Positions 7,461 to 24,556 of a stretch of 32,000 nucleotides of DNA are shown one piece after another. Location: the NCBI GenBank assembly GCA_028698185.1, contig JAQVDW010000004.1, positions 1 through 32,000 on the forward strand. Direction: 5' to 3'. Within the stretch, counting starts at the first letter, position 1. Every line of letters begins with the position of its first letter. The position numbers and the translations under genes are program-made. The notes below the pieces were generated by a model that saw only the letters and a list, made by a program, of their open reading frames with translations, was not told where the DNA came from and searched no databases. This DNA is from Erysipelotrichaceae bacterium (GTDB lineage Bacteria > Bacillota_I > Bacilli_A > Erysipelotrichales > Coprobacillaceae).

Positions 7461-9410
7461 ATGGAAAGAAAATATCCGAATTTATCCAAACCAATCCAGA
7501 TTGGAAATGTGTATTTTAGAAACCGGATGTTCGGTGCGCCTATGGGTGGGACCGACATCACGGCCGACTGCACTATCGGTCCGAAAACTACGGCTTTCTA
7601 TGAGTTAAGAGCCAAAGGTGGGGTGGCCAACGTTACGGTCAGCGAACTGGTTGTCCATCCCAAGACAGAAGCATCGCACATGTACCATCTTGACTTGCAG
7701 ACAGTCAACTCCCTGGCTAGCTTCACCTATACAGCTGATGCGATCCGCCGTCATGGTGCCATCGCTTCGGTCGAACTGTCGCACTCGGGCCAATATGCCG
7801 GGACATATCTTGTCGACAAGGACAAGAAAGAGGGTATGGCCCAATGGGGACCAAGCGCAGGTCTTAGACCTGACGGACGGGAAGTTAAAGAACTTACCAA
7901 AGAACTGATCCAGGAAATCGTTGAAGCGTATGGGGAAAAAGCTGCTCTGGCCAAAAAAGCCGGATTCGAGATGGTCATGATCCACGGTGGTCATGGCTGG
8001 CTGATCAACCAGTTCCTTTCACCTTTTTTCAACAAGCGTACCGATGAATATGGTGGACCGTTGGAAAACCGTGTCCGTTTTGCCATCGAAGTGTTGGAAA
8101 GCGTCCGCAAGGCTGTCGGTCCGGGATTCCCGATCGAATTTAGAATGAGCGGTTCAGAGCTTTTTGAAGGTGGCTACACCCTTGAAGACGGTGTTGAAAT
8201 CGCCAAACTGATCGAAGACAAGATCGACCTGCTTCATGTATCGGCAGGAACATACCAGAAGGGATTCGGTGTCACCCATCCATCGATGTTCTTGGAACAT
8301 GGTCCTAACGTCTATCTTGTAGCTGAAATCAAAAAACATGTAAAAGTTCCAGTTGCCACTATTGGGGCATTGAACGATCCTGAAAAGATGGAAGAGATCA
8401 TCGCTTCAGGAAAAGCCGACATCGTCGAAATGGCCCGGGCTTTGCTTGCCGATCCGGAACTCCCTAGAAAAGTCATGACAAACAATGATCACCTGATCGT
8501 CAAATGCATGCGCTGCTTCACTTGCATGGCTGAACGTGCGGTTACTGGAACAAGACGCTGCACGGTCAATCCAATGATCGGTCGCGAAAGCGATGGTCTG
8601 GAAATCATCCCGGCAGCCAACAAGAAAAAAGTCCTTGTTGTCGGAGCCGGTCCAGGCGGGCTTCAGGCAGCTTACACGGCAGCACGCCGCGGCCATGATG
8701 TTGTCCTTTGCGACAGCAACGATGAAGTGGGAGGAATCCTGATCGGCGAAAAAGCCATTCCGTTCAAATATTCGATGTATGAACTGGGAGTCTCCCTGGG
8801 AAGACTGGCAAAAGAGGCCGGCGTCGACATCCGTCTCAACACAACTGTAGACAAGGCTTATGCCCAAAATGAAAACGCCGATGTGATTATCGTGGCTGCG
8901 GGATCCAAAGCCCTGGTACCTCCAATTCCAGGACTTGACGGTGCCAATGTCATCCAGGCAACCGCATATCATCATAACCAGGACCAAGTAAAAGACAGTG
9001 TCATTGTCCTTGGTGGCGGTCTTTCAGGAACAGAACTGGCTGTCCATCTGGCAAATGAGGGCAAAGCAGTCAAACTTGTGGAAATGGGAAGCGAACTGGC
9101 ACCGGATGCCAATATCCGCCACCGTCCATTGCTCCTCGATGAGGTGAATAAAAAAGGCGTCGAAGTGTTTACCGACCATAAAGGTCTCCAGGTAAATGAT
9201 AACGGCATTGTCTGTCTTGACAAAGAAGGCAATGAAGTAGTCCTTGAAGGCCGAACTGTCATCTGCGCCCTGGGTCAGGTGGCCCGCCGCGATATCGTCG
9301 ATGAACTGATCGACGAAGCGCCAATTGTCAAAACGGTCGGGGACTGTGCTAAAGTCGCGACTATCACGACAGCCATCTATCAGGGCCATCACGCTGCTCT
9401 TGATATCTAA
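7461..9410 (+). CDS. 2-enoate reductase / NADH:flavin oxidoreductase family (OYE-like FMN barrel, 4Fe-4S site and FAD/NAD(P) domain)
   Basis: HGGHGWLINQFLSPFFNKRTDEYGG is an OYE signature. CMRCFTCMAERAVTGTRRCTVNP is a Cys cluster. VLVVGAGPGGLQAA and VIVLGGGLSGTELA are two Rossmann motifs. The 649-aa length matches the enoate-reductase/BaiH/2,4-dienoyl-CoA-reductase architecture. Confidence 0.85.
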   Translation: MERKYPNLSKPIQIGNVYFRNRMFGAPMGGTDITADCTIGPKTTAFYELRAKGGVANVTVSELVVHPKTEASHMYHLDLQTVNSLASFTYTADAIRRHGAIASVELSHSGQYAGTYLVDKDKKEGMAQWGPSAGLRPDGREVKELTKELIQEIVEAYGEKAALAKKAGFEMVMIHGGHGWLINQFLSPFFNKRTDEYGGPLENRVRFAIEVLESVRKAVGPGFPIEFRMSGSELFEGGYTLEDGVEIAKLIEDKIDLLHVSAGTYQKGFGVTHPSMFLEHGPNVYLVAEIKKHVKVPVATIGALNDPEKMEEIIASGKADIVEMARALLADPELPRKVMTNNDHLIVKCMRCFTCMAERAVTGTRRCTVNPMIGRESDGLEIIPAANKKKVLVVGAGPGGLQAAYTAARRGHDVVLCDSNDEVGGILIGEKAIPFKYSMYELGVSLGRLAKEAGVDIRLNTTVDKAYAQNENADVIIVAAGSKALVPPIPGLDGANVIQATAYHHNQDQVKDSVIVLGGGLSGTELAVHLANEGKAVKLVEMGSELAPDANIRHRPLLLDEVNKKGVEVFTDHKGLQVNDNGIVCLDKEGNEVVLEGRTVICALGQVARRDIVDELIDEAPIVKTVGDCAKVATITTAIYQGHHAALDI

Positions 9411-10937: not shown

Positions 10938-11324
10938 ATGGCTTGAAAAGTCAGCTACGTGATTGGGAGGGATCTCAGGCAACCTGGTTGGCTGTTTTTT
11001 GAAATCCTGGTAAACAATTTGCCCTCGAACGCCCTTAATGGTTTAGAGTGAATCCAGAAAGGCACCGTTTGAACATTCTCCGTCACTTGCAGTATGTTGA
11101 ACTCTTTTTTTGAGGGCATGTCCATGTCGGTCATGGAATCAGGGGCATCGAAGAAATTGGGGGTCCTGATCAAAAATTATCCGGACGACTTGACTTAAAG
11201 TGAACTTCATGATGTATATTTAAAGGTGTTGCAACTTTTGTTTGAGTTTGCGCGCTTCTCGATTCAACAAGCCAAATCAAGGCAGTCAGTTGTTTTGGCT
11301 GTCAAATTAAGGAGGGTATTTACC

Positions 11325-12341
11325 ATGCATATGGCTGACGCTTTGGTTTCCCCACAAGTCGGGGGAGCTTTGTTTGTCGCTGCGGCTGGTGTGGCGGCCT
11401 ATTCACTAAGGAAAGTAAAAAATGATTTCGCGGAATACAAGGTTCCCCTGATGGGGGTTATGGGAGCGTTTGTTTTTGCGGCCCAGATGATCAACTTCAC
11501 GATTCCCGGGACCGGTTCAAGCGGGCATATCGGGGGAGGGATCCTGCTGGCGATCTTGCTTGGTCCCTATGCGGGATTTTTGACGATGGCCTCGATCCTG
11601 GTAGTCCAGGCCCTGTTTTTCGGGGACGGGGGACTGCTGGCGCTTGGCTGCAATATCATCAATATGGGATTGTTCACCTGTTTTGTTGCCTATCCGTTGA
11701 TCTATAAACCGATAGCGCAAAGGGGTCTGACCCGGAACCGGATCTTCATCGGTGCACTGTTGAGTGTTGTTGTCGGGTTGCAGATGGGGGCCTTCAGCGT
11801 CGTTATGGAAACATTGCTTTCAGGCAAGACTGAGCTGCCGTTTGGCACCTTTGTCATGCTGATGCAGCCGATCCACCTGGCCATCGGAGCCGTCGAGGGG
11901 CTGATCACCGGGTCGGTCGTGGCCTTCATTTACCAGGCCCGGCCGGAACTGCTTGACAGCGCAAATGATGTTGGGCCAGGCCGATCAAAAAGCTTCAGGA
12001 AAGTTTTCGCCACTTTGGCGGTGGTGACATTGATGGTCGGGGGCGTGCTTTCATGGTTTGCTTCAAGCAATCCCGATGGCCTGGAATGGGCGATGGAAAG
12101 AACCGCCGGAACTGCCGAGCTCGAAGATGACGGAACAGTCCATTCCATCATGGGCGAAGTCCAGGAAAAGACGGCATTCCTGCCCGATTATGGTTTTGCC
12201 GGGGATGTCGGCGATAAAATCACCCAGTACTTAGGAACAAGTGTGTCCGGAATTGTCGGTGGTGGACTGACCCTGGGGTTATGTGCTACAATTGGGATGA
12301 CGATAATTCACGTTAAAAACAAAAAGGGTTCCACTTTGTAA
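11325..12341 (+). CDS. cbiM: ECF transporter substrate-capture component CbiM/NikM with a fused C-terminal PDGLE domain
   Basis: The ORF track frame is 11226..12341. ATG 11325 (MHMADALVSP...) follows AAGGAGGG by 7 nt. It has the N-terminal Met-His typical of CbiM, PLMGVMGAFVFAAQMINF, GSSGHIGGG and FFGDGG. The C-terminal NPDGLEW is the PDGLE motif. Confidence 0.85.
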   Translation: MHMADALVSPQVGGALFVAAAGVAAYSLRKVKNDFAEYKVPLMGVMGAFVFAAQMINFTIPGTGSSGHIGGGILLAILLGPYAGFLTMASILVVQALFFGDGGLLALGCNIINMGLFTCFVAYPLIYKPIAQRGLTRNRIFIGALLSVVVGLQMGAFSVVMETLLSGKTELPFGTFVMLMQPIHLAIGAVEGLITGSVVAFIYQARPELLDSANDVGPGRSKSFRKVFATLAVVTLMVGGVLSWFASSNPDGLEWAMERTAGTAELEDDGTVHSIMGEVQEKTAFLPDYGFAGDVGDKITQYLGTSVSGIVGGGLTLGLCATIGMTIIHVKNKKGSTL

Positions 12342-12395
12342 GTGGAGCCTTATTCTTAAACTGACATCAATATCAAACGAGAAGGGGGTGCACCG

Positions 12396-13169
12396 ATGCA
12401 AAAGATACTCTCGGCCATGGACAATATCCGGCTGTTCGACGACCTGGCCCGCAAGAAGTCGGCCATCCATTCGCTTCATCCTGTTGCCAAGCTGATCACG
12501 ACTTTCGCATTTTTGCTGTTCCTGGTTTCCTTCGGGCGTTATGAGATCATCAAGCTGCTGCCTTTTGTGGCTTTTCCACTGTTCATGATCATCAAGGCCG
12601 ACCTGCCCCTGATTCCCCTTGGACAGCGGCTGCTGGTGGTCGAGCCGCTGATCGTCGGGGTCGGGATCCTGAATCCGCTTTTCGATCCGGCGGGGTGGCT
12701 CACCTTCGCTTCAATCATGATCAAAGCCACCTTGACGGTGGTTGCCGCCCTGGTCCTGGTTGGAACAACCGGGATGGACCGGCTGGCCAGTGCCCTGTAC
12801 AAGCTCAAGGTTCCGGATATGTTTGTCTTGCAGCTGACCTTGACCTATCGCTATATTTTCGTGCTCGTCGAGGAGCTGGTGGTGATGATGCGGGCCTATT
12901 CGCTGCGCAGTTACACCCAGAAGGGAATTTCATTCAAGGATGGCGGTCCATTTGTCGGCCAGCTGCTTTTAAGGACGCTGGACCGGGCCCAGCGGGTCCA
13001 TTATGCCATGGGATTGCGCGGGTTTCAGGGCCGATATCCTGACGACGGGCAAACTTCACTAAAAGCGAAGGACCTGGTTTTCGCCCTGGGCTGGATCGGT
13101 TTCTTTCTGCTTTGCCGGTTCTACAATTGGCCGGCATTGCTCGGTCTATTATTGGGAGGTATACAATGA
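12396..13169 (+). CDS. cbiQ: ECF transporter transmembrane (T) component CbiQ
   Basis: 257 aa and polytopic, with a conserved Arg-rich coupling region (AYSLRSY...RTLDRAQRVHYAMGLRG). It sits between cbiM and the ATPase gene. Confidence 0.8.
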   Translation: MQKILSAMDNIRLFDDLARKKSAIHSLHPVAKLITTFAFLLFLVSFGRYEIIKLLPFVAFPLFMIIKADLPLIPLGQRLLVVEPLIVGVGILNPLFDPAGWLTFASIMIKATLTVVAALVLVGTTGMDRLASALYKLKVPDMFVLQLTLTYRYIFVLVEELVVMMRAYSLRSYTQKGISFKDGGPFVGQLLLRTLDRAQRVHYAMGLRGFQGRYPDDGQTSLKAKDLVFALGWIGFFLLCRFYNWPALLGLLLGGIQ

Positions 13170-13933
13170 GTCATCATAAAATTGAAGTGAGGAATCTGGC
13201 GTACAGCTATCCTGATGGCTGCCAGGCAATCAGGGACATATCGTTCACCATCCGCCATGGCGAGTCGGTGGGAATAATCGGGGCCAATGGTTCGGGCAAA
13301 TCGACCTTGTTGATGCTGCTCCTTGGAATCATGTTTCCAAGCAAGGGCCAGGTGCTTGTCGGTGATGTCGCCCTGACAAAAAAGACCCTGGCGATGATCC
13401 GCCAGCGGCTGCAGCTGGTGTTCCAGGATAGCGACGATCAGCTGTTTACGACTTCGGTTTTTGATGACGTCGCCTTTGGACCACGCAACTACAATCTGAG
13501 CCCAACCGAAGTTGATACCCGGGTCGACGAGGCGCTTGAACAGGTTGGCATTGCCCATCTCAAATACAAGGCGCCCTACAAGCTTTCGGGTGGCCAGAAA
13601 AAAGCCGCGGCGATTGCCACGGTATTGGCCATGCATCCCGATGTGCTGATCATGGATGAGCCGACTTCGGGACTTGACCCAAAATCCCGGCGCCGCCTGA
13701 TTGACATTCTCAAGTGCTTCGACCACACCAAGATTATCACAAGCCACGATCTGGATCTGGTTCTGGATACCTGCCAAATCACGATTGTAATCAATGACGG
13801 AACGGTGGCGGCCATCGGTCCCACTGAAGAGGTCCTTTCCAATCGGGAACTGCTCGAAAGGTGCGATCTTGAAGTGCCACTTTCAATCAAACTACGCTCT
13901 CTACAGGGCAATGGAAGGCATGATGCCGATTAA
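13166..13933 (+). CDS. cbiO: ECF transporter ATPase CbiO
   Basis: The ORF track frame is 13112..13933. ATG 13166 (MSHHKIEVRNL) follows GGGAGG and overlaps the cbiQ stop as ATGA. It has Walker A GANGSGKST, signature LSGGQKK and Walker B VLIMDEPTSGLD. Confidence 0.9.
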   Translation: MSHHKIEVRNLAYSYPDGCQAIRDISFTIRHGESVGIIGANGSGKSTLLMLLLGIMFPSKGQVLVGDVALTKKTLAMIRQRLQLVFQDSDDQLFTTSVFDDVAFGPRNYNLSPTEVDTRVDEALEQVGIAHLKYKAPYKLSGGQKKAAAIATVLAMHPDVLIMDEPTSGLDPKSRRRLIDILKCFDHTKIITSHDLDLVLDTCQITIVINDGTVAAIGPTEEVLSNRELLERCDLEVPLSIKLRSLQGNGRHDAD

Positions 13934-14058: not shown

Positions 14059-14098
14059 AAAATAAAAACAGTCAGTCCCTGATCTTGGGAGCTGACCG
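14059..14098 (-). terminator. rho-independent terminator of the minus-strand operon
   Basis: The minus strand reads GGTCAGCTCCC-aagatc-AGGGACTGAC, followed by TGTTTTTATTTT. It lies just downstream of the AKR stop at 14112. Confidence 0.75.
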
Positions 14099-14111
14099 TT
14101 AGTGATTCTGG

Positions 14112-14975
14112 CTATTTTCCGCTGAATACTGGCATAATTCGCATCATCCCGTATCCTTTGATTGGGGTGATGTTATTGAGTTTAGCCATATCCAGGTCGC
14201 TGATCTCAAAATCGACGGATGCATTTTCTTTCATATGCTCTGGATTGGCAGTCTTTGGCAGAGCGACCGTTCCAAGTTGCAGGTCATAACGGATGCAAAG
14301 CTGCGCTACGGTGACACCATATTTCGCTGCGATTGCCGCAATTTCCTTGTTTTTCAACACTTTGCCATGCGCGATTGGCGCATAGGCTTCGATCAGAATA
14401 TCCCTTTTATGGCAAAATTCAATCAGTTCGTGAGGCGTGTTGGAGATATGGCAAAGAACCTGGTTGACCATCGGCTTGATTTTGCAACCGGAAAGCAGGC
14501 TTTCGAGGTCGTCGATCAGAAAGTTGGAAACACCAATTGCCCGTAACAGACCCGCCTCATAAGCCTTCTCCATCGCCCGCCAAACCTCTTTGTTCTCCTG
14601 GTAGTAGCGGTTTTTCTTGCTGCGCCACTTGTTCCAGGGCTGGGGCGCGTGGATGATGAGAAGATCAAGATAATCCAGGCCAGTTGCGCTCAGGATATCA
14701 TCGATCGCTTTTTTTGCGGCCTGGTAGCTTTTGGCTTCGGCTGCGATTTTGCTTGTCACAAAAAGCTCTTCGCGAGGCACACCGCAAGTCCGGATTCCTT
14801 CACCGACGCCCGCTTCATTCATGTATGCCTGGGCGGTATCGACAAGCCGATAGCCGTTTGCAACAGCCTGTCTTATTGCTTGGGCTGCTGATTTGTTGTT
14901 GATGAACCACGTTCCAAGACCAAGCCTTGGTATCTCTACACCGTTTGATAGTGTGTATTTTTCTTCTAAAATCAT
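14112..14975 (-). CDS. aldo/keto reductase (2,5-diketo-D-gluconate-reductase-like)
   Basis: Motifs LGLGTW, YRLVDTAQAYMNE and LDYLDLLIIHAP over 287 aa, with a GAGGAGGA SD. Confidence 0.88.
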   Translation of the reverse strand: MILEEKYTLSNGVEIPRLGLGTWFINNKSAAQAIRQAVANGYRLVDTAQAYMNEAGVGEGIRTCGVPREELFVTSKIAAEAKSYQAAKKAIDDILSATGLDYLDLLIIHAPQPWNKWRSKKNRYYQENKEVWRAMEKAYEAGLLRAIGVSNFLIDDLESLLSGCKIKPMVNQVLCHISNTPHELIEFCHKRDILIEAYAPIAHGKVLKNKEIAAIAAKYGVTVAQLCIRYDLQLGTVALPKTANPEHMKENASVDFEISDLDMAKLNNITPIKGYGMMRIMPVFSGK

Positions 14976-14993
14976 CTGAATTCCTCCTCGATT

Positions 14994-15479
14994 TTATTCG
15001 TATAATGACAATATGATTGTCACGTTGCCAGTTCCAAGTATTTCTTTCAATTCATCCTGACTTGTGTCATTGATATGGCCCAGTTTGGTAAAGTTCCAAT
15101 TATTTGGCTCATAATATACCACGAAAGAATTTCCCATAAACAATATAAGATCACCCGGCTTGGTCGTGATATTCTCATCATTGGTCGGCAGACCTTTCCA
15201 GATCATCCCGACCTTTTCCATGCCGCCGTAGTCGCGCATCTGGATTGTTTTGGGCCCGCGCTCGAGCATCTGTCTTAATGCCTGAGCCGAGGAGTTGTTT
15301 TCCATTGTTGCGCCCATCTCATGACCGTTTATGGTCAGTCTTATCTGGTATTCGCCTTGGGGCGAAACTCCCAGGAAGCCAATAGGCGTGAACATGTAGA
15401 GAATCGCCAGGACCGCTATCGTCACAATCACGAATGGAACATACCACATTTTGCACACCTTCTTTTTAGATTTTTTCAT
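14994..15479 (-). CDS. cyclophilin-like-fold protein with an N-terminal membrane anchor or signal sequence
   Basis: The ORF track frame is 14994..15518. The start is ambiguous: GTG 15518 overlaps the cupin gene by 26 nt, ATG 15479 gives MKKSKKKVCKMWYVPFVIV..., and ATG 15452 has a GAAGGTG SD. The domain LTINGHEMGATMENNSSAQAL...GDLILFMGNSFVVYY resembles the small cyclophilin-like family that commonly sits next to cupin, CMD and flavodoxin genes. Confidence 0.6.
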   Translation of the reverse strand: MKKSKKKVCKMWYVPFVIVTIAVLAILYMFTPIGFLGVSPQGEYQIRLTINGHEMGATMENNSSAQALRQMLERGPKTIQMRDYGGMEKVGMIWKGLPTNDENITTKPGDLILFMGNSFVVYYEPNNWNFTKLGHINDTSQDELKEILGTGNVTIILSLYE

Positions 15480-15492
15480 AAAGATAGCTTTT

Positions 15493-15924
15493 TCAAAGAG
15501 CCTGGTAGCTGGATTCACTCACTTCTTCGAGCCATTGGACCGAGCGATCTTCGCCGATCGCATCAATCGCCAAAAGGCTAAAGCAGCTGTTTTTCTTGGT
15601 ACCATGCCAGTGTTTAACTCCAGGGGGGATGTGGACAACATCACCGGGTCCTAGCGGTAGCGCATCTTTTCCTTCTTCCTGGTACCAGCCTTCTCCCGCG
15701 GTGCAGATCAGAATTTGCCCGCCCCCTTTGGTGCTTTTGTGGACATGCCAGAAGCACCGTGAACCTGGTGAGAAGGTTACGTTTGCGAGCATCATTGATC
15801 TGCCCACCAATTTTACTGGTCGAAGATACGTCTTCCCGGTCATGTACCTTGCCAGGAAAAAATTTGGAATCCCGGTTTTGAATGTGTTGACTTTCTTGAA
15901 ATCTTTAAAATTCGCATATTTCAT
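15493..15924 (-). CDS. cupin-domain protein (small Mn-cupin type)
   Basis: VTFSPGSRCFWHVHKSTKGGGQILICTAGEGWYQEEG and GDVVHIPPGVKHWHG are the two cupin motifs, over 143 aa. An AAAGGAGA SD lies upstream. Confidence 0.85.
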   Translation of the reverse strand: MKYANFKDFKKVNTFKTGIPNFFLARYMTGKTYLRPVKLVGRSMMLANVTFSPGSRCFWHVHKSTKGGGQILICTAGEGWYQEEGKDALPLGPGDVVHIPPGVKHWHGTKKNSCFSLLAIDAIGEDRSVQWLEEVSESSYQAL

Positions 15925-15976
15925 GGATCAATCTCCTTTGCGCAAATGGTGATTTGGGTTCTTGTGAGGCAACTGA

Positions 15977-16411
15977 TTACAGCTTGGCGTATTGCTGATC
16001 CAAGACTTCTTCAAGCCATTCGTTTGAGCAGTTTTCACCGGCAACCTCAACTGAAATATGGCTGAACCAGCTGTCGGCCTTGGCCCCATGCCAGTGTTTG
16101 ACATTCGGGGCGATCACGATCACTTTTCCTGGAAGCAACTCCACTGGATCCTGACCCTCTTCCTGGTACCATCCTTCGCCTGCAGTGCAGATCAGGATCT
16201 GTCCGCCACCTGACGTTGATTTGTGGACATGCCAGTTGTTGCGGCATCCCGGTTCAAATGTCACGTTAGCCATGAAAACAGGGTCCTTTCCGGGCGCTGT
16301 CAAAAGGTTAAGATAGCTGTTCCCGATAAAATATTTGGCAAACATGGTATTTGGGATTCCCATTCCAAAACTGTTGACTTGATCGAATTCTTCTTTAGTT
16401 AAATATTTCAT
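15977..16411 (-). CDS. cupin-domain protein, tandem paralogue of 15493..15924
   Basis: VTFEPGCRNNWHVHKSTSGGGQILICTAGEGWYQEEG and GKVIVIAPNVKHWHG, over 144 aa. The block GGGQILICTAGEGWYQEEG is shared exactly with the neighbouring cupin. Confidence 0.85.
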   Translation of the reverse strand: MKYLTKEEFDQVNSFGMGIPNTMFAKYFIGNSYLNLLTAPGKDPVFMANVTFEPGCRNNWHVHKSTSGGGQILICTAGEGWYQEEGQDPVELLPGKVIVIAPNVKHWHGAKADSWFSHISVEVAGENCSNEWLEEVLDQQYAKL

Positions 16412-16437
16412 ATTCTTCTTCTCCTCGTTTGTTCATC

Positions 16438-17220
16438 TTATTTGGCATTTGTATTTTGTTGCTGCATCTGTTCTAAGGTGGAAATTGCATTGTTTATCGC
16501 GCTCATGGCATTCAATGATTTTGGGAAACCGATGTATGGAAGACTTTGGGCCACAGCGGCGTATAATATTTCAGGACCATTACCAATGAAAAGGTTGGCG
16601 ATGGCATGAGAGTTGGCCTGGCTGTCACAGCCACCTAAACATATTATGCATACGAAAGTAAGCAGCTCCCTGGTTTTCAAATCCAAGCCGGCTCTGGTAT
16701 AGGTATCGCCAAAGCAATAAGCGGACAGATAGTCCTGCATGAATTTCTGATTTTCCGGGGCGTTGGCACGCATGGCGTCAATCATCTCCCCGAAAAGCAT
16801 TTTTTGGGCGCTAATTCCCTTTTCCAGGCGGTCCTGTTCGCTGACAGTACATTGTTTTGGAAGCGGCAGTGTCAAACCGGCGTTTGCAAAGACATCCCGC
16901 AGGACTTTCAAACCCTTTTCGACTTTTGGGAAACCGACATACGGCGCCGCTTGATGGAAGACTTCCTGAAGCTCGATGGGATCAAGGCCTTGTCCTAAGG
17001 CGACCTGGAGTATCTCTTCGAGATCATCGGATTCACTTGTCACAAGCGCGGCAATTGTAACAAGTAATTGTGTCTTCGAATCAAGTTCGTGTTTTTGGAA
17101 CACTTCGCCATAAATGAAGTTGTTTTTGATATCGACGTATTCCGGAAAAACCGGAAGAAGATAACTGTCGGTCAAATTCTTTTTTTCCATTGTGCTTTTT
17201 GCCTGTTCAATACGGTTCAT
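16438..17220 (-). CDS. carboxymuconolactone decarboxylase (CMD/AhpD-like) family protein, two-domain form
   Basis: 260 aa with two repeats of the CMD-like helical unit (...LDSKTQLLVTIAALV...PYVGFPK... and ...LDLKTRELLTFVCIICLGGCDSQ...PYIGFPK...). Confidence 0.75.
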   Translation of the reverse strand: MNRIEQAKSTMEKKNLTDSYLLPVFPEYVDIKNNFIYGEVFQKHELDSKTQLLVTIAALVTSESDDLEEILQVALGQGLDPIELQEVFHQAAPYVGFPKVEKGLKVLRDVFANAGLTLPLPKQCTVSEQDRLEKGISAQKMLFGEMIDAMRANAPENQKFMQDYLSAYCFGDTYTRAGLDLKTRELLTFVCIICLGGCDSQANSHAIANLFIGNGPEILYAAVAQSLPYIGFPKSLNAMSAINNAISTLEQMQQQNTNAK

Positions 17221-17232
17221 AAATTAAATCTC

Positions 17233-17598
17233 CTATTCATTTTCTGATGCTATCGTGATTTTTACGGAATCCGGCAATTTCTTAATCTGCTCGATTTGCG
17301 ATTCTTTGAGATGGGCAACTACCATCACGCCACGATAGTTTTCCGATTGCTGCTCCCCATCAAAAAATATTGCAAGCCAGCCCCCTGCGAGGCTGATGTC
17401 GCCGTTTTTCCAACCGATCTGGGTCTGGGCTGGGTCAAACAGGCCACAGGCAACATTGCAGCAATAATCGACTGGGGAACGATATCCCGTCAATTTGAGC
17501 GGCAGCCTTTTTTTAAGATCCTGGGCGGCAACAGTATCATTGAGTTCAGTCGATATCGACAGATGACCTGCTGTCAATCTGATTGGTGTTGGCATCAC
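17233..17598 (-). CDS. cyclophilin-like-fold protein (cytoplasmic paralogue)
   Basis: 121 aa. The sequence IRLTAGHLSISTELNDTVAAQDL...GDISLAGGWLAIFF has the same layout as 14994..15479 but lacks the hydrophobic N-terminus. An AAAGGAGGAG SD lies upstream. Confidence 0.6.
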   Translation of the reverse strand: MMPTPIRLTAGHLSISTELNDTVAAQDLKKRLPLKLTGYRSPVDYCCNVACGLFDPAQTQIGWKNGDISLAGGWLAIFFDGEQQSENYRGVMVVAHLKESQIEQIKKLPDSVKITIASENE

Positions 17599-17625
17599 TC
17601 ACTCCTCCTTTGAAATATCCACGTG

Positions 17626-17675
17626 TTGATTTCTTGGCTCAGGGATATTATAATAAGCGTGATAAACAATTACAA
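17626..17675. promoter_or_regulatory. overlapping divergent promoters sharing a palindromic -10 region
   Basis: The plus-strand promoter is TTGATT (17626-17631)-17-TATAAT (17649-17654). The minus-strand promoter is TTGTAA (17670-17675)-17-TATAAT (17647-17652). Both -10 hexamers lie inside the palindrome TATTATAATA (17646-17655). Confidence 0.4.
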
Positions 17676-17707
17676 TTTCCAGATATGTGAATAATATCGA
17701 TTATACA

Positions 17708-17725
17708 CCACTTTTTCAAAAGTGG
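17708..17725. promoter_or_regulatory. perfect inverted repeat CCACTTTT-TC-AAAAGTGG; candidate TetR operator or 5'-UTR hairpin
   Basis: Two perfect 8-bp arms, about 6 nt upstream of the TetR gene SD (AGGAGGG at 17732-17738). Confidence 0.35.
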
Positions 17726-17745
17726 ATATTCAGGAGGGTGCAACA

Positions 17746-18339
17746 ATGGATTTGCAGCGCAAGACGGATTTACGGGTGATTAAGACAAGAGAAGCCATCA
17801 GGAAGGCCTTTCGGGACATGATCTGCGAAATGGAAGCCGATAAGATAACAGTCAAGGAACTGACCGACAGGGCGAGAATTCACAGGAAGACTTTTTACCT
17901 TCACTACACATGTATCGAGGCCCTTTTCGAAGACATGTTTAAGGAGGGGGCGGAGAGTTATTTCAAGGAAATCGACAAATTGCCGATTCCATTCACGATA
18001 GTGGATTTAAATGAGGTATTCTTCACCTCATTGGCCAAACAGGATTTTTTCATGGAGCGGATAATCTGTTCACAGAGTTATCGGCCTTTTTGCAACAAAA
18101 TGTTCGCGTCAGCAGTGCAGCACAACCGCAAACGCTACAATCCCTATGCGCACCTGTCAAAAGAGAAGCAGGATATCATCAACTACTTTCTGGCCACAAG
18201 TTCATTGGAGTTCTATCGCCAATGGGTTGCAGGCGGCAAGGTGATGCCCCTTGAGGAATTGATGGAGCTGGCTGGAAACCTCTTGAATTTGGGAGTATCA
18301 TCAATTACCGGGGATGTCAATCATGGCGATAAATCATAG
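17746..18339 (+). CDS. TetR/AcrR-family transcriptional regulator
   Basis: The ORF track frame is 17722..18339. ATG 17746 (MDLQRKTDLRVIKTREAIRKAF...ITVKELTDRARIHRKTFYLHY) follows AGGAGGG by 7 nt. It has an N-terminal TetR HTH. Confidence 0.8.
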   Translation: MDLQRKTDLRVIKTREAIRKAFRDMICEMEADKITVKELTDRARIHRKTFYLHYTCIEALFEDMFKEGAESYFKEIDKLPIPFTIVDLNEVFFTSLAKQDFFMERIICSQSYRPFCNKMFASAVQHNRKRYNPYAHLSKEKQDIINYFLATSSLEFYRQWVAGGKVMPLEELMELAGNLLNLGVSSITGDVNHGDKS

Positions 18340-18482: not shown

Positions 18483-19352
18483 ATGGAATATGTTACTTTG
18501 AATAACGAATTGAAAATGCCGATCCTGGGATTCGGGGTATTTCAGGTTCCTGACAAAAAGGAATGCGAGGAATCGGTGTACCAGGCGATAAAAGCCGGAT
18601 ACCGTCTGATCGATACCGCTGCTGCCTATACGAATGAAGATGCCGTCGGTGCCGGTGTCAAAAAGGCGATTAATGAAGGCATCTGCACAAGGGAAGACCT
18701 GTTCATCACTTCCAAAATGTGGGTTCAGGACATGGAAAGCTATGAAACGGCCAAAAAAGCTATCGATGTGTCAATTGAAAAGTGTGGTTTGGAATATCTT
18801 GACCTATACCTCCTGCATCAGGCGATGGGCGATTATTTCGCAGCTTGGCGTGCCATGGAAGACGCTTACCGGGAAGGCAAGTTGAAAGCGATCGGAGTAT
18901 CCAACTTCTATCCTAACATCCTGACTAATTTCTGCGAGACAGTGGCGATCAAGCCGATGGTCAACCAGGTTGAATTGCATCCGTATTTCACCCAGGAAAA
19001 GGCTTTGGAAACGATGAAGCAATACGACGTTATTCCAGAAGCGTGGGCACCGCTTGGAGGGGGACGATACAATCCGTTCGAAGACGGTATGCTTGTGGCC
19101 ATAGCTAAAAGATACAACAAGACAGTGGGTCAGGTGTTGCTTCGCTGGAACATCCAACGGGGCGTGGTAGTCATTCCAAAATCAACCCATGTTGAAAGAA
19201 TAATCGAGAATATTGATGTCTTTGATTTCAGTCTTGATGAAACCGAAATGGCTAAAATAGCCTCATTGGATCAGGGGTACAGCGGTTCTAGGGCCAAGCA
19301 TTTTGAGCCTGATTTCGTCCGTGGCTGCCTGGCAATGAAAATACATGATTAA
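18483..19352 (+). CDS. aldo/keto reductase (second copy, 2,5-didehydrogluconate-reductase-like)
   Basis: Motifs LGFGVFQV, YRLIDTAAAYTNE, LEYLDLYLLHQA and IPKSTHVERIIEN over 289 aa, with an AAAGGAGAAAG SD. Confidence 0.88.
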   Translation: MEYVTLNNELKMPILGFGVFQVPDKKECEESVYQAIKAGYRLIDTAAAYTNEDAVGAGVKKAINEGICTREDLFITSKMWVQDMESYETAKKAIDVSIEKCGLEYLDLYLLHQAMGDYFAAWRAMEDAYREGKLKAIGVSNFYPNILTNFCETVAIKPMVNQVELHPYFTQEKALETMKQYDVIPEAWAPLGGGRYNPFEDGMLVAIAKRYNKTVGQVLLRWNIQRGVVVIPKSTHVERIIENIDVFDFSLDETEMAKIASLDQGYSGSRAKHFEPDFVRGCLAMKIHD

Positions 19353-19810
19353 ATGAGGCAGAATGTTCGTTTGGCTGGAGTTGTAAGATTGCCATTTGAA
19401 CCGGCTTAATCAAACAACTATGTTTTGAAATTGATTGGAATGCAAAAATCAGGGGAATGTCATGGCTTGTAAAAGTTGTGGCATTTTTTTGTTTTAATAA
19501 GTATGATGAGACTGTAAAGGATGAACGGAGCCGTCCCAACTCCAACCGGAGACAATTGGAGACAGAAGCAAAAAAAGACCGGAATCGGCCTTTTTCAAAT
19601 TGTGGATTTATGTTTCCTGAGGGAAATGTAGTAGACATGCAATTTCTTTGCAGATACTCTCAAGTTAGGAATGTCTTCAGTCTGGATTCTATTGACTTGT
19701 TGAGATAAGACTCACAACAAACCATTACTAATCAGCTGAGCCGAAGGTTTTTCAATATAGTTGGCAAATTCATATTATATTTGCTCATATCAAACTGATC
19801 AAGGGGATAT

Positions 19811-19839
19811 GTTGAAAGGATTGATAATTTATGTTACAA
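19811..19839 (+). promoter_or_regulatory. putative promoter upstream of the Fic/VbhA remnants (TTGAAA-17-TACAAT)
   Basis: gTTGAAAggattgataatttatgtTACAATt. Confidence 0.35.
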
Positions 19840-19892
19840 TTTGTTTATAATTTTGAAATTTATGGAGAAATGGTAATGCATGGTATTGGTTG

Positions 19893-20060
19893 GATGAAAT
19901 CAAGAATATAAGAGAAGCAGTTAATAATGCTTTAGGAATTTTACTGACCGCTGCTGAGCTGCCCAACTAAAATTATCTAAGACCGCTTGACGATTTTGTG
20001 CTCGGCAAAATCACAATTGAAGAACGGGATATAAAGGATCATAGGTTGGAGTTATCAATT
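19893..20060 (+). pseudogene. VbhA-like (FicA-type) antitoxin remnant with an in-frame TAA
   Basis: The frame reads DEIKNIREAVNNALGILLTAAELPN*NYLRPLDDFVLGKITIEERDIKDHRLEL. From memory this parallels VbhA (..RRDARNALASQRLEGLEP....VVVGELETSDVIKDLMERI). There is no ATG in frame, a TAA at 19968-19970, and the (S/T)xxxE(G/N) inhibitory motif is shortened to TAAEL. Confidence 0.45.
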
Positions 20061-20539
20061 AGAGACGCCCACTGTTATTATGCTACTCAGGTATTGAAAA
20101 TCAAATATGATATCAAGGATAAGGAGATTCTTGAATAGCGTGAAAGAGTAAGTGCAAAAACAAAAATAATATCTCTAGAATTACGCCCGGGGCAAATCAA
20201 TACTGACGTATCTATAGAATATTTGTATAAATTGAACTTCTTTTTGTTTGACAGCTTGTATGATTGGGTTAAAGTAAGTTGGAAAGACTATTGGAACAAG
20301 CTCGGGGCTATAAGTGGGATGATATCCAAGTCGCGATAAAATTCGCTTATGATTTGTTTGTTGGCCTGTGGGAAATCCATCCGTATCGCAAGGGAAACAC
20401 AGGGACATGTCAAACTTTCATCGGACGGATATTTTCGTGCAAAGGTATGGAATTCAATTCGGATCTATTGAAAAATCATCCTGCATATGCCCAGTCAGTC
20501 TTGGTATGGCGGTGTGTGACAATCCACAATATCTCATGA
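20061..20539 (+). pseudogene. Fic (FIDO) domain toxin remnant with an in-frame TAG, a frameshift and a degenerate active-site motif
   Basis: The first frame reads RDAHCYYATQVLKIKYDIKDKEILE*RERVSAKTKIISLELRPGQINTDVSIEYLYKLNFFLFDSLYDW. This matches the usual short-Fic N-terminus (Y.Y.GT.VLKNKLGI.D...L ... HL..IH..LF.D.Y.WAG). A shift to the frame of ORF 20279..20539 then gives ...WDDIQVAIKFAYDLFVGLWEIHPYRKGNTGTCQTF. Here HPYRKGNTGTCQ replaces the HPFxxGNGRxxR consensus. Confidence 0.6.
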
Positions 20540-20587
20540 ATATATCATCGGACGCTTTTCGAGCTTAATTCAATAATAGATTTCTCA

Positions 20588-20713
20588 ATGAAGAAAGGAA
20601 AGCAAAAGAATAACAGGTTTCAAAGGAAAATTATTATTCCACAAAAAACGCGAGAAATTAGTGAAGACAAAGAGGTTGAAGAACGGTTAAGAAAACGGTT
20701 GATTGTAGAATAA
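20588..20713 (+). CDS. hypothetical small basic protein (41 aa); coding status uncertain
   Basis: It reads MKKGKQKNNRFQRKIIIPQKTREISEDKEVEERLRKRLIVE*. I see no clear SD, and it is below the ORF-track size cut-off. Confidence 0.2.
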   Translation: MKKGKQKNNRFQRKIIIPQKTREISEDKEVEERLRKRLIVE

Positions 20714-20758
20714 TCTGGAGTCAATAGGTTGAAGATGCGATTCTATGGAGGAAGGCAA

Positions 20759-21301
20759 ATGAAAAATATAGTAATACTGTTTGTAATCGGGTTAACGTTG
20801 ACAGGTTGTAGCGGAGATAAATCATCATCACAGATGGTTGAGGAAAACACTAAAGAGCTTTTGACGGTCTTGTTTACTTTGCCAGACGATGATGCGTGCC
20901 AGATCGCCCGGGACCAGGGGCTGGAAACATATGAGCAGCTGATCCAAAGTGAGCAGTTGAACAATGAATATATCCAGGTTTATCTCCCTGGAATGCTTGA
21001 ATCGCTTGAATATGTATGCGATGAGGATGGCTTGGAAAGTGTCCGGAACATTCACTTTTTAAATGAATTTTATTACTGCTGTCTTTTCTCTGGGGCGGCA
21101 TACCCGGAATCGATTGAGATTACCCGGGAAAACGATACATGGTACAAATTCACAATCAATGAGTCCACTTCTTGGAATGATGAAGGTTTCAAGGTCAATG
21201 GCGAGGTTACCCTTAAAGACGGTCTGATTTCCAATATCCATGTCAATGATGGCGATATGAAGAACTTCTTCGATGGTGGGAACGTCAGGCTTGCCGGATA
21301 A
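20759..21301 (+). CDS. lipoprotein of unknown function
   Basis: The ORF track frame is 20729..21301. ATG 20759 follows GGAGGAAGG. MKNIVILFVIGLTLTGCSGDKSSSQ is a signal peptide with an L-T-G-C lipobox. I recognise no domain in the rest. Confidence 0.7.
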   Translation: MKNIVILFVIGLTLTGCSGDKSSSQMVEENTKELLTVLFTLPDDDACQIARDQGLETYEQLIQSEQLNNEYIQVYLPGMLESLEYVCDEDGLESVRNIHFLNEFYYCCLFSGAAYPESIEITRENDTWYKFTINESTSWNDEGFKVNGEVTLKDGLISNIHVNDGDMKNFFDGGNVRLAG

Positions 21302-21383: not shown

Positions 21384-22382
21384 TTAGTTGTGCGCTTCTT
21401 GGATAGCAACGGCAACAGCTACTGTAGCTCCTACCATTGGGTTGTTACCCATACCGATCAATCCCATCATTTCAACGTGGGCAGGTACTGATGAAGAACC
21501 AGCGAATTGAGCATCACTGTGCATTCTTCCCATAGTATCTGTCATACCGTATGAAGCAGGACCAGCAGCCATGTTGTCAGGGTGTAATGTACGTCCAGTA
21601 CCACCACCAGATGCTACAGAGAAGTATTTTTTACCTTGTTCCAAACATTCTTTTTTGTATGTTCCGGCAACTGGATGTTGGAAACGAGTTGGGTTAGTTG
21701 AGTTCCCAGTGATTGAGATATCAACGCCTTCACGGTGCATGATAGCTACACCTTCTTGAACGTCGTCAGCACCGTAGCAGTTTACTTTAGCGCGAGGTCC
21801 GTCTGAATATGATTTACGGAAAACTTCTTTCAATTCACCAGTAGCATAGTCATATTGAGTTTCAACGTGAGTGAATCCGTTGATACGTGAGATGATTTTA
21901 GCTGCGTCTTTTCCAAGACCGTCTAAGATTACACGTAAAGGTTCTTTACGAACGCGGTTAGCCGCTTCGGCGATTTTGATTGCTCCTTCAGCTGCAGCGA
22001 AAGATTCGTGTCCAGCCAAGAAAGCGAAACATTTAGTTTCTTCCAATAATAACATTGAACCTAAGTTACCATGTCCCAAACCTACTTTACGTTGGTCAGC
22101 AACTGAACCTGGGATACAGAAAGCTTGTAAACCAACCCCGATCATTTTAGCTGCTTCTACTGCAGAAGTAGCTCCGGTTTTGATTGCGATTGCAGCACCT
22201 GTAATGTATGCCCAACAAGCGTTTTCGAAACAGATTGGTTGAGTTGATTTTACGATATCGTAAACGTTGACACCTTTAGCGTCACAAATAGCTTTAGCTT
22301 CATCCAAATCTTTGATTCCGTATTGAGCTAAAGTTTCGTTGATTGTATTAATTCTGCGGTCATAACTTTCAAATAATGGCAT
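21384..22382 (-). CDS. GGGtGRT-family protein (conserved, function unknown)
   Basis: The ORF track frame is 21384..22430. ATG 22382 (MPLFESYDRRINTINE...) follows TAAGGAGGAG by 7 nt, giving 332 aa. It contains SGGGTGRTLHPDN, the name-giving motif of the uncharacterised GGGtGRT protein family (from memory of Pfam). Confidence 0.8.
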   Translation of the reverse strand: MPLFESYDRRINTINETLAQYGIKDLDEAKAICDAKGVNVYDIVKSTQPICFENACWAYITGAAIAIKTGATSAVEAAKMIGVGLQAFCIPGSVADQRKVGLGHGNLGSMLLLEETKCFAFLAGHESFAAAEGAIKIAEAANRVRKEPLRVILDGLGKDAAKIISRINGFTHVETQYDYATGELKEVFRKSYSDGPRAKVNCYGADDVQEGVAIMHREGVDISITGNSTNPTRFQHPVAGTYKKECLEQGKKYFSVASGGGTGRTLHPDNMAAGPASYGMTDTMGRMHSDAQFAGSSSVPAHVEMMGLIGMGNNPMVGATVAVAVAIQEAHN

Positions 22383-22395
22383 TATCTTCTCCTCC

Positions 22396-23088
22396 TTATT
22401 CGCATCTTGGATCGATGTATTTAGCAGCATCTGCGAATCTACCGTAAGTTTTAGTAGCTTCTTTCATTGCTTCGTTAGCATCCATCCCTTTTTTGATTTT
22501 ATCCATCATGATACCTAGAGAAATAAACTCATATCCACAAGTTTCACCGTCTGCATCCAAACCTAAACGAGTGATGTAACCTTCAGCCAATTCTAAGTAA
22601 CGAGGACCTTTATCTTTAGTAGCATAAGTTGTCCCAACTTGAGATCTTAAACCTTTACCTAAGTCTTCTAAACCAGCACCAATTGGCAATCCTCCTTCAG
22701 AGAATGCAGTTTGGCTGCGACCGTAAACGATTTGTAAGAATAATTCTCTCATTGCTGTATTGATCGCATCGCATACCAAGTCAGTATTTAATGCTTCTAA
22801 AACAGTTCTACCAACGATAGCTTCTGAAGCCATAGCTGCTGAGTGAGTCATCCCTGAACATCCGATTGTTTCAATTAATGCTTCTTCAATGATACCTTCT
22901 TTAACGTTTAATGTTAATTTACAAGCACCCTGTTGAGGAGCACACCAACCAATCCCATGAGTCAATCCTGAAATATCAGTGATTTGTTTTGAGTATACCC
23001 ATTTTCCTTCTTGTGGAATTGGAGCGCAACCATGCGATGCACCAATTTTGACACATTGCATTTGTTCTACTTCGTGTGTGTAATTCAT
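22396..23088 (-). CDS. IscU/NifU-N-like Fe-S scaffold-domain protein with a ~110-aa C-terminal extension
   Basis: The ORF track frame is 22396..23109. I prefer ATG 23088 (MNYTHEVEQMQC...) after AAAGGAG, although the 11-nt spacing makes the start somewhat uncertain. GWCAPQQGACKLTLNVKEGIIEEALIETIGCSGMTHSAAMASEAIVGRTVLEAL parallels the IscU pattern (CGD..L.L.V....I....F...GC....ASSS...E...GK...EA). Its TAA stop is embedded in the SD of the downstream gene. Confidence 0.65.
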   Translation of the reverse strand: MNYTHEVEQMQCVKIGASHGCAPIPQEGKWVYSKQITDISGLTHGIGWCAPQQGACKLTLNVKEGIIEEALIETIGCSGMTHSAAMASEAIVGRTVLEALNTDLVCDAINTAMRELFLQIVYGRSQTAFSEGGLPIGAGLEDLGKGLRSQVGTTYATKDKGPRYLELAEGYITRLGLDADGETCGYEFISLGIMMDKIKKGMDANEAMKEATKTYGRFADAAKYIDPRCE

Positions 23089-23159
23089 CTTTTGAAATAC
23101 TCCTTTCATATTCTTAATGATTGCAACTTTTCTGTAGCGCCATAGCGACCACTTGCTAG

Positions 23160-24446: not shown

Positions 24447-24453
24447 GTCCTTA

Positions 24454-24522
24454 GTTATACGACTGACGGAAGTGGAATTGACCACATGAAGTATAATCTT
24501 GAGAGCCGACCGTCTGGGCACC
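24454..24522 (+). promoter_or_regulatory. candidate ZTP (pfl-motif) riboswitch aptamer
   Basis: P1 pairs GTTATAC (24454-24460) with GTATAAT (24491-24497). The junction is GACTGACGGAA. P2 pairs GTGG (24472-24475) with CCAC (24482-24485). The 3' subdomain is GCCGACCGTCTGGGCA (24505-24520), against the remembered consensus ..CCGCCUGGGCA. The pseudoknot pairs GACGG (24465-24469) with CCGTC (24510-24514). The genomic context (fhs, purH, purN) is typical for ZTP riboswitches. Confidence 0.65.
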
Positions 24523-24556
24523 TGCCTGGATTTGTTGAGCTCTTTTTTTGTTTTTT
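24499..24556 (+). terminator. probable riboswitch expression platform (terminator overlapping the 3' aptamer strand)
   Basis: An inner hairpin pairs TCTGGG (24513-24518) with CCTGGA (24525-24530). An outer helix pairs GAGAGC (24501-24506) with GCTCTT (24539-24544). These are followed by TTTTTTTGTTTTTT. The exact fold is uncertain. Confidence 0.45.

Follow-up and report, generated by a model that had tools for sequence, protein, structure and literature searches.

Among the closest described counterparts of the system treated here are units of a TetR-family repressor and its operator with a divergent efflux, detoxification or catabolic operon, such as TetR/tetA and QacR/qacA. With them it shares a regulator gene that is read away from its target, a predicted, imperfectly palindromic operator that overlaps the promoter of the target or the start of its transcript, another site in the leader of the regulator gene, from which autoregulation would follow, and a regulator with a predicted domain for a small-molecule ligand. 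It is found in a stretch of 32,000 nucleotides of an Erysipelotrichaceae bacterium (contig JAQVDW010000004.1, positions 1 to 32,000; hereafter the window), where six genes on the minus strand, from 17595 down to 14112, stand divergent from the gene of a TetR-family regulator (17746-18339, plus strand, 197 aa). Unlike in TetR/tetA and QacR/qacA, the targets are soluble enzymes and an exported barrel protein and not a pump, the predicted operator consists of three AATnTCCA half-sites set at fixed spacing across about 115 nt, and the regulator falls in the poorly characterised TetR_C_8/DhaS-like branch of its family.

In Bacillus subtilis, the YodB, CatR and MhqR regulons for quinone and electrophile stress are induced by reactive electrophiles and comprise repressor-controlled small reductases, dioxygenase-like and cupin-like proteins and esterases. 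FMN reductases, dienelactone-hydrolase-type esterases and HxlR-type regulators are likewise accessory neighbours of the genes studied here, but the Bacillus repressors are of the MarR/DUF24 kind whereas this one is a TetR, and it is combined with PF18050 (cyclophilin-like) proteins, a double CMD protein, cupins of the hydroxynitrile lyase (HNL) type and an extracytoplasmic component. We think, with a probability of roughly 0.55, that the locus is a ligand-derepressed TetR regulon for the conversion or detoxification of some small and reactive compound, either a carbonyl or an aromatic one; which substrate this is cannot be deduced. What is new is the link of three abundant families without assigned function in one regulon, and the kind of system, a TetR-repressed enzyme operon, is already known. 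The literature yielded nothing relevant about PF18050, the combination of genes or the operator, nor any documented pathway role, which agrees with the suggestion of an earlier note, written from the sequence of the window, that the module is an undescribed one.

The control region and the operon

Strong in silico evidence indicates that TetR controls the enzymes as well as itself, and that the enzymes make up a single regulon also at loci with a disrupted operon, because the control region is conserved and predicted operators also stand in front of sub-operons that have split off. The divergent control region between tetR and the first enzyme gene can be aligned with hardly a gap across some 130 nt in each of the 11 loci with an orthologous TetR, three of high GC included, and in every one of them it holds AATATCCACGTGTTGMTT together with two more copies of AATnTCCA/TGGAnATT at fixed spacing. 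Going by conservation only, a palindromic operator lies between regulator and target. Its predicted site 1 (17614-17631; AATATCCACGTGTTGATT, with AATATCCAC at 17614) is an imperfect palindrome around CACGTG, placed between the -10 of the operon promoter and the Shine-Dalgarno sequence of the first gene, CYPc. It has 0-3 mismatches to the consensus in 11 of 11 TetR-orthologue loci, matches with two mismatches or fewer are confined to loci with this TetR in the 2.1 Mb of loci that were fetched, and 0.05 matches would be expected by chance in the window. The central element AATTTCCA (17674-17681) is the third copy of the half-site and abuts the -35 of the operon; the columns T-C-x-A-T-x-x-C-C-A are invariant in the alignment of the 11 loci. 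The predicted site 2 (17708-17730) reads CCAC-N11-GTGGATATT, with the GTGGATATT part at 17722 and the consensus TTAyGCCACAC-N11-TGGAyATT, and lies directly 5' of the Shine-Dalgarno sequence of TetR. This site is recognisable in all 11 loci and is unique in the window, where 0 chance matches are expected, and its distance to site 1 is a constant 72-73 nt wherever the automated pattern scored it, which was the case at nine loci. Extra copies of the operator stand directly upstream of a split-off unit of cupin and aldo-keto reductase (AKR) genes in one related locus (L094), and about 75 nt upstream of a CYPc-CMD unit in another (L177).

The start of the regulator is the ATG at 17746, as called in the relative L090, and not the GTG at 17722. 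Its Pfam scores, 23.8 bits for TetR_C_8 and 16.5 bits for TetR_N, are both slightly below the cut-offs, and the orthologue in L176 exceeds the one for TetR_C_8. In the PDB it matches the TetR regulator 3KKC (E 8e-9 over residues 9-175), and DhaS is matched with E 3e-4. The N-terminal helix-turn-helix and the predicted C-terminal ligand-binding helical domain place the protein in the TetR family. Beyond the divergent TetR, as had been described before, comes a second AKR gene, AKR2 (18483-19352, plus strand; Pfam E 3.5e-44), whose product is 38% identical to AKR1 of the operon. No plus-strand terminator was found between TetR and AKR2, and the two are possibly co-transcribed; only the close relative L001 keeps AKR2 in this place, and it is uncertain whether the gene belongs to the regulon.

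By its computed anatomy the set of six genes is one operon. In the order of reading they encode CYPc (17233-17595, 120 aa; PF18050, Cyclophil_like2, E 2.5e-11), the CMD protein (16438-17220, 260 aa; two Pfam CMD domains, E 4e-25), cupin 1 (15977-16411, 144 aa; Cupin_2), cupin 2 (15493-15924, 143 aa; Cupin_2), CYPm (14994-15479 or 14994-15449, 161 or 151 aa; PF18050, E 9e-23), which has an N-terminal transmembrane helix, and as the last one AKR1 (14112-14975, 287 aa; Pfam Aldo_ket_red, E 7e-48). The family calls of the earlier note, two PF18050 proteins, a double CMD, two cupins and an AKR, were all correct when checked by HMM assignment. The intergenic gaps are, in gene order, 12, 26, 52, 13 or 43, and 18 nt, and a GGAGG-like Shine-Dalgarno sequence stands 6-10 nt 5' of every gene, except when CYPm is started at 15479. 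The picture of six same-strand genes with gaps of 12-52 nt and Shine-Dalgarno sequences of their own thus holds apart from this start, and the gene overlap that had been considered is an artefact of a GTG at 15518. The gene callers picked 15449 for CYPm; we favour the ATG at 15479, because the homologues are 156-165 aa long and the Lys/Arg-rich N-tail is shared with L001 (MKKSKKKVCK in the window, MERFKKRGRK in L001). CYPc starts with the ATG at 17595, and the GTG at 17598 given by the open reading frame tool sits one codon upstream of it.

A promoter had been expected at about 17640-17675, and the operon promoter (17647-17675, minus strand) is indeed located there, with the -35 TTGTAA at 17675-17670, a 17-nt spacer and the -10 TATAAT at 17652-17647, so that 10 of 12 consensus positions are matched in a consensus scan. 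Promoter-grade matches are no scarcer here than chance predicts (11 observed against 10.4 expected), but the position of this promoter is conserved at other loci. The promoter block ATTATAAT is kept in the low-GC loci and in part in the three high-GC loci (L094, L085 and L096), and its spacing is identical in 11 of 11 loci. Within the operon the consensus scan gave internal promoter and terminator matches at chance level. At its end lies an intrinsic terminator (14067-14100, minus strand), in which the hairpin at 14100-14067 is followed by the U-run UGUUUUUAUUUU; the hairpin has -18.3 kcal/mol and z = -4.5, none of 200 shuffles folds equally well, and the earlier description of it as a clean terminator is apt.

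The gene set in other genomes

In a scan with one genome per species, CYPm relatives were found in more than 591 genomes of Bacillota, Bacteroidota, Spirochaetota, Actinomycetota and Desulfobacterota. The identical operon is present in several metagenome assemblies, the samples SRR24962750 and SRR22315505 among its carriers, and the nearest species-representative genome is a metagenome-assembled genome (MAG) of Candidatus Limiplasma, at 67% identity. The window probably comes from a gut anaerobe that has not been cultured. In L001, where CYPm is 82% identical, order and flanks are the same and cupin 2 is replaced by a 294-aa bicupin. The neighbourhoods of 79 CYPm relatives were sampled, corresponding to 80 loci of which one duplicates L004. 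Within 3 kb of the CYPm relative, 32 of the 80 loci have an HNL-type cupin, 16 an AKR and 9 a second PF18050 gene. The density of HNL-type cupins is 10.9 per 100 kb within 1.5 kb against 0.8 at 3-10 kb, and 29 of the 33 that lie nearby are on the strand of the anchor gene; the corresponding densities for AKR are 6.4 within 1.5 kb and 0.5-1.7 further out. Other close neighbours are FMN reductases, flavodoxin-like proteins, CMD proteins, dienelactone-hydrolase-type esterases, Fe-ADH proteins and LysR and AraC regulators. All in all this is a redox and electrophile-handling repertoire, and the accessory families (quinone-type FMN reductases, esterases, hydrolases of the metallo-beta-lactamase (MBL) fold and Fe-ADH) fit the handling of electrophiles or xenobiotics.

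Orthologues of TetR with 48-64% identity adjoin the same families in nine other lineages (L052, L176, L177, L174, L005, L094, L012, L085 and L096). Gene set and operator are found again in anaerobes of distant kinship. A cupin is present in 9 of the 9 and so is CMD, with a weak match in L012, a PF18050 protein in 8 and an AKR in 5, where the one of L096 is a weak match of 81 aa. All six families occur together again only in close relatives, in L005 and in L176, in the last two with other gene orders. The constant core is TetR, cupin and CMD, usually with PF18050, to which an AKR, a second cupin and the exported paralogue are often added. In L176 the genes divergent from TetR encode CYPc, an FMN reductase, a cupin, CMD, a PF18050 protein of 192 aa, an AKR and an esterase. 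In L005 (Candidatus Limiplasma) the operators have CMD, CYPc, cupin and esterase reading away on one side, and TetR, bicupin, CYPm and AKR on the other. Facing TetR in L094 are CMD, CYPc, cupin and esterase, followed by the separate cupin and AKR; L052 has cupin, CMD, PF18050 and AKR in this position, L177 a cupin and an MBL-fold protein, then CYPc and CMD, L174 CMD, cupin and CYPc, and L085 CYPc, CMD and cupin. Genes that stay together while their order is shuffled are the classical sign of a functional link. The idea of one module under TetR has thereby gained in weight, since the families co-occur with an orthologous TetR in nine lineages, share an operator and form fusions, and the gene-neighbourhood comparison that had been proposed as a check found the genes co-conserved in other genomes.

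A metagenome scan with the CMD profile is dominated by a single human-gut species with a stand-alone CMD of 252 aa, and was used qualitatively only. On plasmids only distant CMD homologues (<45% identity) were found, and nothing indicates that the module is plasmid-borne; examples are an AraC gene divergent from CMD and AKR genes in Priestia, and a 384-aa CMD-family protein in Parabacteroides that is likely a CMD-cupin fusion.

The proteins and their characterised relatives

Both cyclophilin-like proteins belong to PF18050, with 44.1 bits for CYPc and 81.0 bits for CYPm against a cut-off of 22.7, and neither of them matches PF00160 (Pro_isomerase) at E <= 0.01, so that they are not of the peptidyl-prolyl isomerase family. 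At least 4,676 clusters at 50% identity match a PF18050-type profile. The CYPc family has a near-invariant VDYCC motif, in which the second Cys is invariant in 24 sequences, and a 98%-identical CYPc in an Erysipelotrichaceae MAG goes by the NCBI name 'cyclophilin-like fold protein'. The exported paralogue type, to which CYPm belongs, has DYGxMEKVG where CYPc has VDYCC, and the cysteines are absent. An AlphaFold2 model of CYPm (pLDDT 91) has an N-terminal helix at residues 3-25 and then a beta-barrel. A hydrophobic N-terminal signal was found in 53 of 72 CYPm relatives and a lipobox in at least 25, 22 of the 72 are fused to Flavodoxin_4, and further domains are SLH, Por_Secre_tail, dockerin and Big_2. 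Because of these signals, lipoboxes and cell-surface domains, the CYPm subfamily is predicted to work outside the cytoplasm, and the earlier proposal that one step takes place outside the membrane finds support in the signal peptide, lipobox or cell-surface domain of most relatives of the anchored paralogue.

Several proteins of the wider family have unusual architectures. Large predicted lipoproteins or secreted proteins in L013, L016, L017, L020, L021 and other loci consist of Flavodoxin_4 and a C-terminal PF18050 barrel, some of them also with SLH or Por_Secre_tail, and an exported flavodoxin-like domain is in itself out of the ordinary. PF18050 is also fused to rhodanese (P0100, P0102), which together with the HNL-type cupins gives a faint hint of sulfur or cyanide chemistry, and there are tandem double-PF18050 proteins (P0314 and other matches in two stretches). 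In Vibrio porteresiae (L175, 4394-5357) a lone CYPc orthologue with 53% identity and the Cys-Cys motif adjoins a MerR regulator and an RND efflux pump, at a locus that has neither CMD nor cupin, a hint that CYPc is able to bind a soft metal or an electrophile through its thiols without these partners.

With the CYPm model as query, Foldseek ranks the Pictet-Spenglerases KslB and McbB highest; the structures 9NS6, 9NST (KslB with product) and 9K0A are matched with E 1e-6 to 1e-5, a query TM-score of 0.60-0.62 and 20-22% identity, and 3X27 with E 2e-4. The barrel of CYPm superposes on the catalytic barrel domain of these two enzymes at a TM-score of about 0.6 and E 1e-6 to 2e-4, and comparably on TM1367, AF2241 and 3KOP, cyclophilin-like proteins of unknown function that come next in the ranking; by TM-score TM1367 and AF2241 match the model about equally. 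True cyclophilins are weak structural matches (E >= 8e-3). KslB and McbB consist of a beta-barrel with a catalytic Glu and a helical bundle in one chain of about 300 aa, and the bundle contributes to a dimeric active site (PMC12012969, PMC12547825); the order of the two domains is swapped between them (PMC12012969). The catalytic glutamate is Glu274 in KslB and Glu97 in McbB. CYPc and CYPm are in contrast single-domain proteins with no detectable sequence similarity to these enzymes, and searches of the PDB sequences with PF18050 profiles (A1, A3) and with CYPc alone gave no match even at E <= 10. We considered whether CYPc and CMD might be a split version of KslB/McbB, and rejected it, as the CMD model matches only CMD/AhpD structures among the best 50 Foldseek matches.

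Because of the structural kinship to the barrels of these Pictet-Spenglerases, the modelled PF18050 barrel is more likely a domain for small-molecule binding or catalysis than a prolyl isomerase, and we take this as a lead and not as a family assignment. It could be speculated further that PF18050 stands for a large class, so far unrecognised, of small barrels that work by themselves as enzymes or as catalysts binding small molecules, kin to the KslB/McbB barrel, with carbonyl-amine or carbonyl-thiol chemistry on reactive metabolites. The cytoplasmic Cys-Cys form would then be the partner of CMD and cupin, and the exported form, often fused to a secreted flavodoxin-like domain, would act at the cell surface of anaerobes. 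We believe this idea unlikely to be right.

The CMD protein shares with PcaC and with AhpD of Mycobacterium tuberculosis the all-helical CMD fold, which is duplicated in one chain as in 4G9Q. Its AlphaFold2 model has a pLDDT of 95, and the best 50 Foldseek matches are CMD/AhpD structures only, the double-CMD 4G9Q included. It is not an equivalog of PcaC (TIGR02425), with 71.5 bits against a cut-off of 155.7, and there are no pca (beta-ketoadipate) genes in the window or in related loci. In CMD domain 2 the constellation Glu...Cys...His is found at the place of the AhpD active site, in the form E185...C198-x-x-Q201-x-x-x-H205, which is a one-cysteine version of the AhpD motif; C169, D172, Y174 and R176 are invariant. 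What defines AhpD is CxxCxxxH together with an AhpC partner, but the sequence here is C198-D-S-Q201, with an invariant Gln in the place of the second Cys, and no peroxiredoxin/AhpC gene was found in the operon or in most related loci. A cupin with 53% identity to cupin 1 forms the N-terminal part of many homologues of the double CMD (55-59% identity).

The cupins are related to GtHNL/AcHNL and TM1010 (4BIF, 4UXA and 2F4P), all of them monocupins of about 130-145 aa with the Mn ligands His-x-His...Gln...His. The best PDB match of cupin 1 is GtHNL 4BIF (E 3.8e-22, 118 residues aligned), followed by TM1010 (E 5e-22). The ligands are conserved as WHvH...GQ...KHWH in the alignment of cupin 1 with 4BIF, and cupin 2, a paralogue of cupin 1 with 54% identity, has the same motifs; in GtHNL numbering they are His53, His55, Gln59 and His94. 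The resemblance to a Mn-dependent hydroxynitrile lyase that the earlier note had pointed out is a real one, even if the scores against the NCBIfam model MandnitrLy (NF049940), 112.5 bits for cupin 1 and 103.9 bits for cupin 2, stay below the equivalog cut-off of 140. In other respects the operon cupins differ, as they have a four-residue insertion (KSTSGGG) after HxH, and cupins of this type occur in strict anaerobes, paired with or fused to CMD. We know of no clear physiological role even for the characterised HNLs. The place of cupin 2 is taken by a 294-aa bicupin in L001, L005, L009, L034 and L035, and in L001 each half of it resembles cupin 2, one with 73% and the other with 58% identity. 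Since such fusion proteins exist, a physical cooperation of the cupin/CMD and cupin/cupin partners seems probable.

AKR1 is a member of the aldo-keto reductase superfamily (PF00248, 163.6 bits) with the complete Asp-Tyr-Lys-His tetrad, D46, Y51, K76 and H109 as read from the translation. It belongs to the same superfamily as DkgA, DkgB and YvgN, which are 2,5-diketogluconate and methylglyoxal reductases, and DkgA (NF008598) is its best NCBIfam match, but with 178.5 bits it is far below the equivalog cut-off of 425, as is AKR2 with 234.6 bits, and the substrate specificity is not transferable. A role in ascorbate/diketogulonate catabolism, as a DkgA-like AKR next to lactone-type families might bring to mind, was dropped when the literature gave nothing usable.

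Possible function and genomic surroundings

How the operon is repressed and released, that its enzymes cooperate and what kind of substrate they have are things that we infer. In the absence of an inducer, TetR dimers would occupy the three AATnTCCA half-sites in the 150-nt divergent control region, with site 1 covering the transcript start of the operon, the central element abutting its -35 and site 2 in the TetR leader, and because of this placement both the operon and tetR would be repressed. A small ligand in the C-terminal domain of TetR would release the repressor. The cytoplasmic core, consisting of the Cys-Cys barrel CYPc, the double CMD with its one-cysteine E...C...H site and the Mn-cupin or cupins, could then act jointly on the compound, e.g. 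by cleavage or formation of a C-C bond, decarboxylation or isomerisation next to a carbonyl, and the NADPH-dependent AKR1 could reduce the carbonyl of substrate or product. CYPm on the outer face of the membrane might bind or convert this compound, or one related to it, ahead of its entry into the cell.

Several observations weigh against this interpretation. The Pfam scores of TetR are under the curated cut-offs, and the operator is a prediction from sequence conservation only. About half of the CYPm relatives have no partner family within 3 kb, and the common double-CMD protein of the human gut stands alone, so not every member of these families works in a module context. A reactive carbonyl or aromatic compound is moreover a weak and generic guess, because the families are chemically promiscuous, and the hosts are anaerobes, in which some of the classical CMD and dienelactone chemistry has no role on record.

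The variation in gene content and order between loci could also be what is expected of a general stress regulon and not of a pathway, that is, a toolbox in which TetR co-regulates enzymes that each deal with an electrophile, quinone or aldehyde of their own, like in YodB/MhqR/CatR of Bacillus. Accessories such as the FMN reductase, the MBL-fold protein and the alpha/beta-hydrolase come and go, every family also occurs alone, and HxlR, LysR, MerR and AraC regulators as well as quinone-reductase-like flavoproteins are common neighbours. The cupin-CMD and cupin-cupin fusions, however, imply physical cooperation, the triad of CYPc, CMD and cupin is near-constant around an orthologous TetR (8-9 of 9 loci), and a toolbox has no need for paired barrel paralogues of which one is intracellular and the other extracellular. 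We regard such a toolbox as unlikely but deserving serious attention. The fitting cysteine chemistry could instead speak for a thiol or peroxide redox defence, where a thiol relay of CMD and CYPc reduces organic peroxides, disulfides or S-adducts, and cupin and AKR handle the resulting aldehydes: there are invariant cysteines in CMD (C169, and C198 together with E185 and H205) and in the VDYCC motif of CYPc, AhpD and CMD proteins that carry the annotation 'antioxidative' are similar in structure to the CMD model, and the exported paralogue has DYGxMEKVG without these cysteines, as expected extracytoplasmically. We find it quite improbable nevertheless, as there is no CxxC motif with a Gln in the second Cys position, an AhpC/peroxiredoxin partner is missing from the operon and most related loci, and control by a TetR with a small ligand suits a xenobiotic better than a peroxide. 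Peroxide sensors are usually of the OhrR, PerR or OxyR type.

Nutrition and not defence would be the purpose if the genes serve to break down or salvage one specific compound from the diet or the host, for example a plant cyanohydrin, a lactone or a phenolic aglycone. The HNL type of the cupins, the fusion of some PF18050 relatives to rhodanese, the recurrence of lactone-related families (CMD, dienelactone hydrolase and MBL fold) and a phosphotransferase system (PTS)/GH1 cluster of aryl-beta-glucoside type that adjoins the locus in L001 can all be read in this way. Yet no transporter, kinase or link to central metabolism is conserved with the module, which is too small a cluster to feed carbon into central metabolism, the window is without GH1/PTS neighbours, and the cupins score below the HNL equivalog cut-off, and we would be surprised if such a route turned out to be the function. 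Least of all do we expect a biosynthetic module, with PF18050 barrels as Pictet-Spenglerase-like condensing enzymes that form an alkaloid-like metabolite, of the beta-carboline type or another. In structure the CYPm model comes closest to the barrels of KslB (E 1e-6) and McbB (PMC12012969), but these enzymes need a fused helical bundle (PMC12012969, PMC12547825) and CYPc and CYPm are single-domain; the neighbouring CMD is not the helical domain in question (Foldseek gives CMD/AhpD only), profile searches show no sequence-level similarity, TM1367 and AF2241 match the model about equally by TM-score, and no amide synthetase or other tailoring genes are present.

A TetR regulon for a reactive compound would matter because PF18050, HNL-type small cupins and double-CMD proteins are abundant in gut and other anaerobes, none of them with an assigned physiological function. 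The dedicated repressor with its predicted operator offers a route to function, in that the ligand releasing TetR would identify the compound of the enzymes. The Flavodoxin-like fusions of the exported paralogue point to undescribed chemistry at the outer face of the membrane, and if the substrate is a dietary or host electrophile, the module bears on the xenobiotic metabolism of gut bacteria.

Convergent with the operon, at 11226-13933 on the plus strand, are genes for ECF-type cobalt/nickel uptake, CbiM(-PDGLE)/CbiQ/CbiO, upstream of which no cobalamin riboswitch was detected. This arrangement is conserved only in close relatives (L001, L090-L092), and we treat CbiMQO as synteny and not as part of the module. 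A PadR-type regulator (5526-6080, minus strand) is divergent from an MFS transporter (6215-7444), and 7461-9410 encodes a 649-aa Old-Yellow-Enzyme/FAD-pyridine-nucleotide reductase of the enoate or 2,4-dienoyl-reductase type, which is also found near the locus in L001; the set looks like a second small-molecule or phenolic response unit. Between PadR and the transporter, at 6135-6152 on the minus strand, AATATTTACATGTTGATT has a weak likeness to operator site 1, with three mismatches to the site of the window and four to the consensus, which may be due to chance or to a PadR site and is not conserved evidence.

On the other side of the operon, about 1 kb (19700-20700) is without a long open reading frame and has a GC of 0.39 and a strong GC skew. 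A fragmentary frame at 20279-20539 contains HPYRKGNTG, resembling a degenerate Fic motif HPFx[D/E]GNGR, and may be a decayed Fic/Doc gene. It is followed by a predicted lipoprotein of 190 aa (20729-21301, plus strand) with the lipobox LTLTGCSG and no Pfam match, and by a GGGtGRT-family protein (PF14057, E 1e-192; 21384-22430, minus strand) with an overlapping upstream frame of 237 aa that has no Pfam match (22396-23109, minus strand). A ZMP/ZTP (pfl) riboswitch at 24449-24526 on the plus strand (Rfam RF01750; its 52.8 bits exceed the gathering score) precedes the genes for formate-tetrahydrofolate ligase (24632-26308) and a purC-purM-purN-purH cluster (26351-30202), which is a known arrangement.

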